Shown here: positions 53,637 through 56,117 of the stretch, in pieces
Numbering within the stretch: position 1 is the stretch's first letter
Layout of the letters: each line of letters starts with the position of its first letter
Origin: a virus
Length of the DNA stretch: 64,000 bases
Virus record (IMG/VR): IMGVR_UViG_3300025413_001414
Span: 1-64,000 of that record
Direction: 5' to 3' (one strand)
Made by a program: the position numbers and the translations under genes
Notes under the pieces: generated by a model
Told to the model about the DNA's origin: nothing
What the model saw: the letters and a program-made list of their open reading frames with translations, nothing else
Database searches by the model: none

Positions 53637-54095
53637 TTAATTTTTTTCAAATAAAGAATTAATAATCTCATTTCTAATAACATCCTGATGTATGAAGTAA
53701 TCCTCAAAGAAATGGACTGTAGTATCGAAATGATGAGATCCATACAATTCTTCTACTTCTAACTTTGTTAAATAACAAAAAAAGTGATTTACCGAATCTT
53801 GATCTAAGATATTATAAAAAGGTATTTCTACCTTTCTCCTATAAATATCTTTGTCGGATACTCTCTTATTAATTCTCTGTAAATCTTGTATTTCTTCTTC
53901 TGTTAATTTTTTACCAATGTAAGGCTTAGTCAGATTTAAAAAAGATTTTAATTCATACATATATTTTTTATAATCGGTGATAACTTCAACTTTTTTATCG
54001 ACTATTTCAGTCACATTATACCAATCATCTTGTTCAAAAAAGATGCCCCAATGTGCATCATATGTCTTTATACATTTTACTTTCATATTATTCAA
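53637..54095 (-). CDS. Hypothetical protein with C-terminal tag
   Basis: MKVKCIK...IRNEIINSLF. Confidence 0.6.
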   Translation of the reverse strand: MNNMKVKCIKTYDAHWGIFFEQDDWYNVTEIVDKKVEVITDYKKYMYELKSFLNLTKPYIGKKLTEEEIQDLQRINKRVSDKDIYRRKVEIPFYNILDQDSVNHFFCYLTKLEVEELYGSHHFDTTVHFFEDYFIHQDVIRNEIINSLFEKN

Positions 54096-54471
54096 AGTCA
54101 GCTATTGGTATTTCTTTAGCCAAATCAGACCTGGTTTTTTTAGGTTTAGGCTTATAAACCATATTTAAGGCACTATATTTTATATCTTCATTTTGAACCA
54201 CTTTACTTGATTTTAAAATATCTTGTAGTATTTTAGGATCCGGATTTTTATGAAGATACAAGGCTATATCTAATATCATATTTTGAGTATCCTTATGTCG
54301 TATTTTATCAATCTCATATCCATATTTATTAGAAAGATAGGTTACGAATCCATATGGCAAAGTATTATTACCTGATTCTATATTCTGAATAATAAGTCTA
54401 TGATAGTCTATATTCATCACCAATTCTCTTGGGACTACTATAGACAAATCTTTTTGTATAAGTTCCATCAT
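54088..54471 (-). CDS. Hypothetical protein
   Basis: 127 aa. Confidence 0.55.
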   Translation of the reverse strand: MMELIQKDLSIVVPRELVMNIDYHRLIIQNIESGNNTLPYGFVTYLSNKYGYEIDKIRHKDTQNMILDIALYLHKNPDPKILQDILKSSKVVQNEDIKYSALNMVYKPKPKKTRSDLAKEIPIADFE

Positions 54472-54488
54472 ATTTTATATTTAATATT

Positions 54489-54711
54489 ATAGTGACGATT
54501 ATACCCGCGGTTCTGTTTTATTCTATCATTTATCTCACCTTTCGGTGGCCTATTAAGGCTGCCTCAACCCGACTATCGTTGGGAAACCGACACCCTAAGT
54601 CTGTATGAGTTGCTACTTCTTTGGTCTAACGACTGATTAGGTCTTCCAAATTAGGTTTTGTAGCCGCGAAGTTCCTCTAGCATTTGCCAGCGATAGATCA
54701 TCCATCACTAT
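54489..54711 (-). ncRNA. rnpB: RNase P RNA, minimal (catalytic domain only)
   Basis: GAGGAACU-U-CGCGG / ACAGAACCGCGGGU (P4 with bulged U); P1 10 bp, P2 7 bp, P3; P5 CUAC/GUAG-CAA; P6 AAACC/GGUUU; P15 with GGU; P18 CACC-GAAA-GGUG; AGAUAAAUGA. Confidence 0.9.
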
Positions 54712-55175
54712 GTTAATATTTCTAAATTCAATTCTCTTTTAAACTTTTGTTTATACTCACCAATAAATTCCTCTAAAAGTGGGTGAATATGTGGATATAT
54801 TTCTTCACGAATATTATCAACATCACCAATATACTCTTTGAATAATTTTAAAATTCTATTAGGTGTATTTGGTATAATATTAATTAAACATAAATAGTTT
54901 AAAACCCTTTCTTTTTTAGGATCTAATTTTTTACCACTTTTATTCCATGTGTCCATCCATTCCAATTTTAAAGACATTGCTTTAAAATCAGTAACAACTA
55001 CACTCTGCCACCAATCAGAAAATTCATTATCCCTAATCACTGGATCAAATCCAATCATCTTGGTATATTTTTCCCATATATAATCAATATTGGATCGTAA
55101 GACATATGTATCATTACAAGCCTTATGAAACATTATTGAAAATGTTAATAAGTTATCTACCTGGTCATTATTCAT
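54708..55175 (-). CDS. Hypothetical protein with C-terminal tag, probably leaderless
   Basis: KRELNLEILT*; TATATTTG at 55180-87 just upstream of the ATG. Confidence 0.6.
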   Translation of the reverse strand: MNNDQVDNLLTFSIMFHKACNDTYVLRSNIDYIWEKYTKMIGFDPVIRDNEFSDWWQSVVVTDFKAMSLKLEWMDTWNKSGKKLDPKKERVLNYLCLINIIPNTPNRILKLFKEYIGDVDNIREEIYPHIHPLLEEFIGEYKQKFKRELNLEILT

Positions 55176-55256
55176 ATTACAAATATACGATAAATTTAAG
55201 AAAAAAGAAAAAACAAAATCTTTAAAATTAAATATATAGATAAAATTATTTTTGAT

Positions 55257-56117
55257 ATGAATAGAAAATGGCTTATATTTTTGGTATCTCTTGCAGCAAT
55301 TACAATTGCTGGAACTGCTGCCTATTTTTCAGTTACAGGTCTTGGTGTATTATTTGCTGGTGCTTCTGTGTCAGTTATGATTATGGCTGGTTCATTAGAG
55401 TTTGCTAAACTTGTTACTGCTACATACTTAAAACAATCTTGGAAAACAATAAAAGGTATTAATAAATGGTATTTAACAATTGCTGTTGCTATTTTAATGT
55501 TAATTACATCTGCGGGTATCTTTGGTTATTTATCAAATGCCTTCCAACAACAAAATTTGAAATTAGACCAAGTTCAGCGAGAAATCTCTGTCTGGGACAC
55601 AAAGATTAAAACTAATAATGATCAAATTACATTCTTAAATACACAACTTACTAATTTACAACAAAATCAGGGTAAGTTATTGGAAAATGGTAAAGTTAAT
55701 AATCGTTTATTATCATCAGTTGATAATAGGGATAAACAAACAGCTAAGATATCCGATAAAATATCATCTTTACAAGATTCAATTGTATCCTACAATAATC
55801 AAATCAATGAAATCAAAAACAAAAACATCGACATTGAAAAAGAAGTTGGTGGATTTAGATTCGTAGCTGAGGCTTTTAATGTTCCATTAAAAACAGTTGT
55901 TAAATTTTTCATAATTTTAATTGTAGTAGTTTTTGACCCATTAGCTATCGCACTTGTAATTGCTTTTAACGAGTTAACTTTACAAGGTAAAAAAGATGAA
56001 GAAGAAACTAAAACTGAACTACCACAAGTTGAGACTCCTAAAGTAGAACAGGAAATATCAACACCAACCGTTGAAACTACTGAATCTGATGATTCTGATT
56101 TAAAAAAAAAGTCTTAG
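55257..56117 (+). CDS. Membrane protein with coiled coil (short isoform)
   Basis: Three N-terminal TMs (LEFAKLV, TSAGIFGYLS), coiled coil, TM (VFDPLAIALVIA). Confidence 0.75.
   Translation: MNRKWLIFLVSLAAITIAGTAAYFSVTGLGVLFAGASVSVMIMAGSLEFAKLVTATYLKQSWKTIKGINKWYLTIAVAILMLITSAGIFGYLSNAFQQQNLKLDQVQREISVWDTKIKTNNDQITFLNTQLTNLQQNQGKLLENGKVNNRLLSSVDNRDKQTAKISDKISSLQDSIVSYNNQINEIKNKNIDIEKEVGGFRFVAEAFNVPLKTVVKFFIILIVVVFDPLAIALVIAFNELTLQGKKDEEETKTELPQVETPKVEQEISTPTVETTESDDSDLKKKS

Follow-up and report, generated by a model that had tools for sequence, protein, structure and literature searches.

Does the short interval between two protein genes of a giant-phage fragment encode an RNase P RNA, and what could such an RNA do without its specificity (S-) domain? 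To our knowledge, the gene for RNase P RNA is considered to belong strictly to cells and organelles, and a two-domain build is the textbook form of the bacterial molecule. The sequence analysed here, hereafter the window, is a stretch of 64,000 nucleotides belonging to a 78.7 kb record that is itself a fragment rated 16% complete. The fragment comes from a giant bacteriophage and points to a parent genome of roughly half a megabase. On the minus strand of the window, positions 54711-54489 form a 223-nt gene for a miniature RNase P RNA, with the ends of helix P1 as its own ends. Our analysis supports the view that this RNA is phage-borne and derived from type A, with the catalytic (C-) domain kept and P7-P14 absent, an identification based on an Rfam match, conserved core motifs and covariation across a whole family of relatives.

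The initial annotation of this locus took phage-borne RNase P RNAs as already reported, a statement for which no such paper was found. A search of the full-text literature, with many subscription journals outside its scope, returned no virus-encoded RNase P RNA, and RNase P is not mentioned in the huge-phage paper PMC7162821 according to a term search of its text.

Locus and secondary structure

The RNA is held by a 236-nt gap between the minus-strand ORFs 54708-55175 and 54088-54471, and this gap is an island of 44% G+C as against 27% G+C for the window. An Rfam E-value scan of positions 54300-54900, the kind of covariance-model check that the initial annotation had proposed, gave a match to RF00010 (RNaseP_bact_a) at 54709..54487 on the minus strand, with 44.6 bits and an E-value of 1.3e-12. 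The alignment is global, running end to end over model positions 1-367, and model positions about 73-213, which make up the S-domain of roughly 140 positions, correspond to a stub of about 35-40 nt in the window RNA (about 39 nt when counted over the RF00010 S-domain positions); the earlier proposal of a short stub in place of P7-P14 is thereby borne out. In the RNase P clan CL00002, of which cmscan keeps only the best member, the top match is likewise RF00010 and not the model of type T or another archaeal one. The score is nevertheless below the RF00010 gathering threshold of 100 bits: an Rfam scan of the window at that threshold did not list the RNA, a search of the whole record was likewise empty, and standard annotation thus misses the family. 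Single-sequence folding energy is not distinctive (z -0.95 for the RNA strand and -1.66 for the opposite strand), and the RNase P identity is therefore drawn from homology and covariation rather than from thermodynamic folding.

Helices P1-P6 and P15-P18 of the window RNA can all be written with standard pairs, and GGU is present in L15. All features described below lie on the minus strand. P1 joins 54711-54702 with 54498-54489 through 10 standard pairs (duplex energy of -10.3 kcal/mol), and P2 pairs UCUAUC (54697-54692) with GAUAGA (54527-54522), again through standard pairs. The P3 hairpin, CUGGC-AAAU-GCUAG, spans 54690-54677 and is followed by CR-I (54678-54664), which consists of the J3/4 motif GAGGA and the 5' strand of P4. 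The latter helix, ACU-[U]-CGCGG / CCGCG-GGU, pairs 54672-54664 with 54510-54503 and bulges the U at 54669; its 3' strand, CCGCGGGU at 54510-54503, forms 8 of 8 pairs and stands directly after the ACAGAA of J2/4 (AAAACAGAA, 54519-54511). P5 pairs CUAC (54663-54660) with GUAG (54616-54613) and encloses both the stub and the 5' strand of P6, a pseudoknot between AACC (54657-54654) and GGUU (54588-54585) in the loop of P17. The segment 54612-54563 holds J5/15 with its GCAA, then P15-P17 (within 54609-54563; CUCA/UGAG, GACU/AGUC and GGG/CCC) and the 3' side of L15, where CGGGUU occupies 54571-54566 and its GGU 54569-54567. An extra hairpin, GCCU-UAAU-AGGC (54559-54548), is interposed between P15 and P18, the latter reading CACC-GAAA-GGUG at 54547-54536. 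J18/2, the conserved region CR-IV/V, stands at 54535-54527 and reads AGAUAAAU(G), also given as AGAUAAAUG, as placed by the RF00010 alignment and by conservation in the family.

The stub region, P5 included, covers 54663-54613 and comprises an outer helix UUUGG/CCAAA, an inner hairpin GAC-CUAAUCA-GUC and a conserved loop GUUAGA; it reads GGAAG where most members of the family have GGGAG. The outer helix of the initial annotation is supported. Its inner helix, CUAA/UUAG, is not: covariation favours GAC (54643-54641) paired with GUC (54633-54631). Otherwise the initial description of the molecule, namely its extent at 54489-54711, its length, its P4 helix and its overlap with the upstream stop codon, agrees with our pair list, the ORF coordinates and the RF00010 alignment.

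Family distribution and covariation

A blastn search against deposited phages returned weak similarity only to LR745206.1 (634 kb) and LR756501.1 (735 kb), two curated huge-phage genomes in which an RNA of this kind, its P4 helix preserved through compensatory changes, was recognised by eye. Al-Shayeb et al. 2020 (PMC7162821) assign genomes above 634 kb to a clade named 'Mahaphage', for which the predicted hosts are Bacteroidetes. An Rfam E-value scan of the RNAs of these two genomes (loci L001 and L002) gave no RNase P match, and the size of the family hence cannot be counted with Rfam. We used instead a dedicated covariance model, R1, a core model of 136 positions that runs from P3 to P15 and has three seed sequences, the window RNA among them. 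Two independent motif scans of IMG/VR, one with a 3'-half pattern and the other with a pattern confined to the 5' half, were screened with R1 at E < 1e-3. The 3'-half scan fixes GCAA, CAWACAG and CGGGTT by construction; the 5'-half scan is free of them.

R1 matches numbered at least 40 from the 3'-half scan and 43 from the 5'-half scan, for a total of at least 83, and at least 60 distinct full-length IMG/VR members remained once duplicates were removed. Independent members score between 28 and 147 bits; the 155.7 bits of the window RNA follow from its place in the seed. Many members are carried by phage contigs of 100-500 kb rated 95-100% complete by CheckV. When 185,579 species-representative genomes were scanned with one motif, 21 sequences matched the pattern, and R1 recognised five of them as true members. 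MAG contigs account for all five, and four of the contigs are either tRNA arrays of phage-like character or 546 kb in length; isolate genomes gave zero members in this single exact-pattern scan. The mini RNA family thus looks phage-restricted by its sequence distribution, within the limits of one exact-pattern scan, and its near absence from cellular genomes is a new observation. Mini RNase P RNAs are found on a 546 kb contig of a 'Bacteriovoracaceae' MAG (L204) and on a 171 kb contig of a 'Methanobacterium' MAG (L221), the second also bearing a dense tRNA array; both are probably mis-binned huge-phage contigs.

Covariation was evaluated in alignment A5, made of the members of the 5'-half scan and thus ascertained without the 3'-half motif. 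Standard pairs occupy 95.3% of its paired cells, compared with 68.6% in shuffles, and 288 cells carry double changes against 77 in shuffles, a number reached by 0 of 500 shuffles. When the partners are displaced by 1-3 columns, the pairing falls to 28-49%. In A5, 4 of the 5 pairs of P3 covary, as do all four pairs of P6 in the wider family, and the same is true of P5, P15, P16 and P17, of the outer helix of the stub and of its inner three-pair hairpin (G-N-N/N-N-C). The two stub helices flank a conserved asymmetric loop, GGGAG...CGUUA. P1, P2, P4 and P18 were tested outside R1 by scripts, P2 through a longest-helix partner-swap test; exchanging partners between members destroys both P1 (z -12.4) and P2 (z 7.8) among the matches listed. 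Every helix covaries across the family, including the pseudoknots P4 and P6 that stand outside the model, and the claim that all type-A catalytic-domain helices can be paired therefore has the support of the relatives as well as of the standard pairs in the window.

P4 takes the form of 29 distinct helices in 60 distinct members, and the bulge, at a position left free in the pattern, is U in 60 of 60, both among the matches listed. In the first set, the 8/8 complementary strand follows directly after ACA[GA][AG]A in 33 of the 36 members with GAGGA, again among the matches listed. P6 is kept in nearly all members (among the matches listed) under various guises: AACC/GGUU, UGCU/AGCA, AGCA/UGCU, CGCA/UGCG, CACU/AGUG and CAAG/CUUG. 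The L15 GGU is retained in 41 of the 43 members ascertained by the 5' half alone, and most of these 43 also keep GCAA in J5/15 and ACAG before P16. The deletion of the S-domain has the same boundaries throughout the family and leaves a conserved stub motif.

Among the matches listed, the P18 region is missing in 29 of 60 members, where P15 leads straight to J18/2, and 31, the window included, have an insert. Inserts of 33-70 nt fold as two hairpins in 24 of 27 cases, all with different stems, and the loop of the last hairpin is GNRA, usually GAAA, in 20 two-hairpin members (both counts among the matches listed). The P18 loop of bacterial RNase P RNA docks on P8 of the S-domain. A GNRA loop is conserved in P18 (54536-54547 in the window, and 20 relatives) although its P8 receptor is absent. 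This two-hairpin P18 subtype with an orphan GAAA loop is new. A comparison of CUAA-type stub loops with P18 GAAA loops, in which the regular expression clipped several stubs, revealed no clear link.

Flanking genes, tRNAs and the protein subunit

Directly upstream of the RNA lies a conserved gene for a 155-aa protein (54708-55175, minus strand), whose TAG stop codon, at 54710-54708, falls inside the 5' strand of P1. Starting from the loci of the RNA, tblastn located the same gene directly upstream of the RNA in LR745206.1, in the 483 kb and 476 kb genomes G028 and G003, and at loci L156 and L146. The synteny loci recovered by tblastn are L001 (homologue at 983-1447), L203, L156, L104 and L146; a protein-first search contributed a single extra contig, L225 (homologue at 1501-1956), where an RNA scoring 146.9 bits with R1 starts 18 nt behind the ORF, bringing the number to seven with the window. 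The L225 RNA is the closest relative of the window RNA. In the window and in the five relatives inspected, the stop codon of the ORF stands in or at the 5' strand of P1. This conserved module of a 155-aa gene and an RNA with a stop codon inside P1 is new, as is its location outside tRNA arrays.

The C-terminus of the 155-aa protein, R-E-L-N-L-E-I-L, is strongly conserved, and part of this conservation may reflect a signal at the nucleotide level, e.g. an internal promoter or a processing site. Neither this protein nor the products of the other flanking genes belong to a Pfam or PHROG family. AlphaFold2 models it confidently as a helical bundle (pLDDT 87.5) that finds no match in the PDB (best Foldseek E-value of 3.4, best VIA Z of 3.1), and its predicted pI of 5.65 is mildly acidic; a role as RNA-binding cofactor of the mini RNA is only a guess. 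A 127-aa gene (54088-54471, minus strand), devoid of Pfam or PHROG matches, begins 17 nt downstream of the RNA, and a protein with a similar N-terminus, as judged by eye, follows the RNA in L225.

The initial annotation had the RNA probably co-transcribed from a promoter near 55180; a sigma-70 promoter scan found 11 sites compared with 9.6 in shuffles, i.e. background, and the sole terminator-like site on the RNA strand, 54059-54042, lies behind the 127-aa gene. The simplest reading of this arrangement is that the window RNA is excised from a transcript shared with the 155-aa gene. At locus L125, TTATATTTG occurs about 30-45 nt upstream of the RNA and resembles TAnnTTTG, which we take to be the Bacteroidota -7 promoter element; some members may have a promoter of their own. 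On the opposite strand of the window, 55257-56117 encodes a divergent 286-aa protein with a predicted N-terminal hydrophobic segment and a coiled coil. Its PHROG matches are limited to weak ones to SbcC, spanin and tape-measure-like families, and homologues with 36% identity occur in the RNA-bearing L032 and L079, about 9 kb from the RNA.

Most members are embedded in same-strand tRNA arrays; the window member is not. Among the matches listed, a tRNA gene is found within 100 nt of the RNA for 32 of 82 members, within 1 kb for 48 and within 3 kb for 54, and wherever a tRNA is nearby, the nearest one is on the strand of the RNA. A 3'-CCA is encoded by at least 336 of the 581 neighbouring tRNA genes, part of the remainder looking like a register slip of the script. 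Five complete or large relatives scanned in full yielded 49-66 tRNA matches each, with ordinary scores. No tRNA gene was detected in the 64 kb window, nor in the 14.7 kb by which the record extends beyond it. Suppressor tRNAs accompany at least 11 member loci, at least 10 of them with a CUA anticodon. These CUA (TAG-suppressor) tRNAs, labelled 'Pyl' by ARAGORN and found at L107 (5592-5667), L097 (3197-3272), L070 (1804-1878), L095 (1534-1611), L120 (8568-8641), L046 (1739-1810) and L013 (4321-4395), stand 0.1-12 kb from the mini RNase P RNA, and suggest that such loci belong to stop-codon-recoded phages. TAG recoding is not indicated in the window, where ORF coverage is 85% with code 11 and 86% with the recoded table.

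The protein subunit RnpA (PF00825) is encoded by three near-complete genomes that also carry the mini RNA, LR745206.1, G003 and G028, with scores of 46-49 bits against a cut-off of 22.3. In LR745206.1 and the 476 kb G003, PF00825 reaches 49 bits and the ORFs measure about 100 aa with an RNR motif; G028 combines an RnpA relative with a mini RNA at 122 bits. The RnpA ORFs with this motif include L193 1465-1812 (plus strand; LR745206.1 76444-76752, PF00825) and L194 1498-1797 (minus strand). Relatives of RnpA reside on four more phage contigs, G028 being the near-complete one of the four, with loci including L200-L202. The RnpA gene and the mini RNA are more than 50 kb apart in the three genomes, and more than 400 kb apart in LR745206.1. 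PF00825 found no match in 24 other large records with a mini RNA, of which 14 have a completeness of 90% or more, and an RnpA gene was not found in the 78.7 kb record of the window, which is about 16% of a genome. The use of host RnpA, as the initial annotation had it, is therefore not the whole story, as three near-complete relatives of the clade encode their own.

Function and relation to known RNase P RNAs

We consider it likely that the RNA is the type-A-derived catalytic subunit of a phage RNase P that trims the 5' leaders of phage pre-tRNAs. This reading of a working RNase P draws on the catalytic core, on GGU and J5/15, on the linkage to tRNA arrays, on the large tRNA sets and on the occasional phage rnpA. 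The catalytic domain of the window RNA is complete, with P1-P6 and P15-P18, a metal-binding P4 with its bulged U, and the core motifs GAGGA (J3/4), GCAA (J5/15), AGAUAAAUG (J18/2), ACAGAA (J2/4) and GGU (L15). The L15 GGU of RNase P RNA pairs with the 3'-CCA of tRNA. In the absence of an S-domain, the substrate would be held by this CCA-L15 pairing and by the leader contacts of a bacterial-type RnpA, instead of by reading of the tRNA elbow; RnpA would be supplied by the host, or by the phage in those clade members that encode it. The mini RNA would in this way remove the leaders from the phage's own pre-tRNAs, which number 49-66 in complete relatives. In the clade of the window, the RNA would probably be co-transcribed with the 155-aa gene and then cut out. 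Catalysis, substrates, protein partner and mode of expression are all predictions made from sequence. Counting against the enzyme are the score of 44.6 for a threshold of 100 and a record with neither tRNA nor RnpA, to which can be added that most complete relatives have no RnpA.

Could the RNA bind without cutting? A decoy or sponge, whose catalytic-domain-like fold sequesters host RnpA or pre-tRNAs and depresses host tRNA maturation with no catalysis, would keep much of the core, since RnpA binds this same conserved core. The RnpA-binding surface of RNase P RNA is made of P3, P4, J18/2, J2/4 and P15, whereas the A residues of J5/15 and the GGU of L15 contact the substrate and not the protein. 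That surface is fully kept in the window RNA, the lack of RnpA genes in most complete relatives would make the host protein the partner, and engineered C-domains deprived of the S-domain perform poorly as enzymes (PMC5839562). Such sequestration is nonetheless quite unlikely in our view: a block of RNase P would hurt phages whose own 49-66 tRNAs need 5' trimming, members lie inside same-strand tRNA arrays, relatives with their own RnpA would defeat the sequestration, and the substrate-contacting GGU and A residues are conserved along with the protein-binding ones. The evidence leans towards an active enzyme rather than a decoy.

Another version of the active ribozyme has main substrates other than standard pre-tRNAs, the loss of elbow recognition having widened or shifted its specificity; candidates would be hairpin-CCA or tRNA-like elements in polycistronic transcripts, precursors of suppressor tRNAs, or its own excision. 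The missing domain is the one that measures the elbow, the window member and its nearest kin sit between protein genes with a stop codon inside P1, an arrangement that requires the processing of an mRNA, and the suppressor tRNAs of at least 11 member loci, at least 10 of them CUA, could be among the targets. Most members are, however, in ordinary arrays of tRNAs that look canonical, the ordinary scores of neighbouring phage tRNAs make no special substrate need evident, and no candidate non-tRNA motif was noticed, short of a systematic search, so that we rate a shift of substrates as unlikely. That the RNA is a degenerating remnant of an rnpB gene captured from a host, with no present function, could be argued from its score below the curated threshold and the loss of half of the molecule. 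About 80 diverged copies keep every core helix by compensatory change together with invariant catalytic nucleotides, and the deletion boundaries are uniform around a conserved stub motif; a relic is thus very improbable, and in practice the covariation excludes it.

Going further than the trimming of phage pre-tRNAs by a mini RNA, we tentatively envisage an orthogonal RNase P of huge phages, sometimes equipped with a phage RnpA, which would be independent of the host and would dispense with elbow reading, the RNA being excised from an mRNA in the present case and the 155-aa protein being a possible partner; this broader scheme is plausible, though we would not call it probable. If true, this enzyme would be the first RNase P encoded by a virus, and type T would have in it a natural counterpart on the bacterial side. 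A phage-only catalytic-domain family under selection would show that viruses can carry the RNase P ribozyme, that the S-domain of the bacterial molecule can be dispensed with in nature, as type T showed for archaea and laboratory truncations suggested, and that tRNA-rich phages invest in tRNA maturation besides tRNA genes. With its 200-230 nt, the family could also provide a naturally optimised minimal ribozyme for structural and mechanistic work.

Compared with type A rnpB (RF00010), the phage RNA shares the order of helices P1-P6 and P15-P17, with the P6 pseudoknot and a GNRA-looped P18, as well as GAGGA and the bulged U of P4, GCAA, AGAUAAAUG, ACAGAA and the GGU of L15. It departs from type A in two defining features, the S-domain and the curated score: type A has P7-P14 and CR-II/CR-III where the phage RNA has a stub of about 35 nt, and its length is 223 nt as against about 330-400 nt for type A (377 nt for E. 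coli M1 RNA). P4 also differs, with AGU-U-CGCGA as the commonest form in the family and ACU-U-CGCGG in the window, compared with AAG-U-CCGGG in type A, and the hairpin that precedes P18 in the phage RNA is extra to the type A layout.

In experiments on E. coli RNase P RNA, the isolated C-domain kept activity, which depended on a P6-like pairing but not on P18 (Mao et al. 2018, PMC5839562). The dependence of this engineered CP RPR on P6 and its tolerance of P18 loss match the retention of P6 and the frequent loss of P18 in the phage family, an agreement that is new. Engineered C-domains are laboratory truncations with reduced efficiency, whereas the phage reduction is natural and under selection, and the conserved GGGAG-hairpin-CGUUA stub of the phage family is absent from the engineered constructs.

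The closest natural parallel is the type T RNase P RNA of Thermoproteaceae (Pyrobaculum), which measures about 200 nt, has lost nearly all of its S-domain and was missed by standard models (Chan, Brown and Lowe 2012, PMC3579882). Type T and the phage RNA have in common the near-complete loss of the S-domain and the retention of the C-domain, a likeness by analogy rather than by homology at this level. The core of type T is archaeal and its partners are the archaeal proteins Pop5, Rpp30 and L7Ae (PMC13462272); the phage RNA is of bacterial type A descent, with a bacterial-type RnpA in some genomes. The two reductions are independent of each other and convergent.
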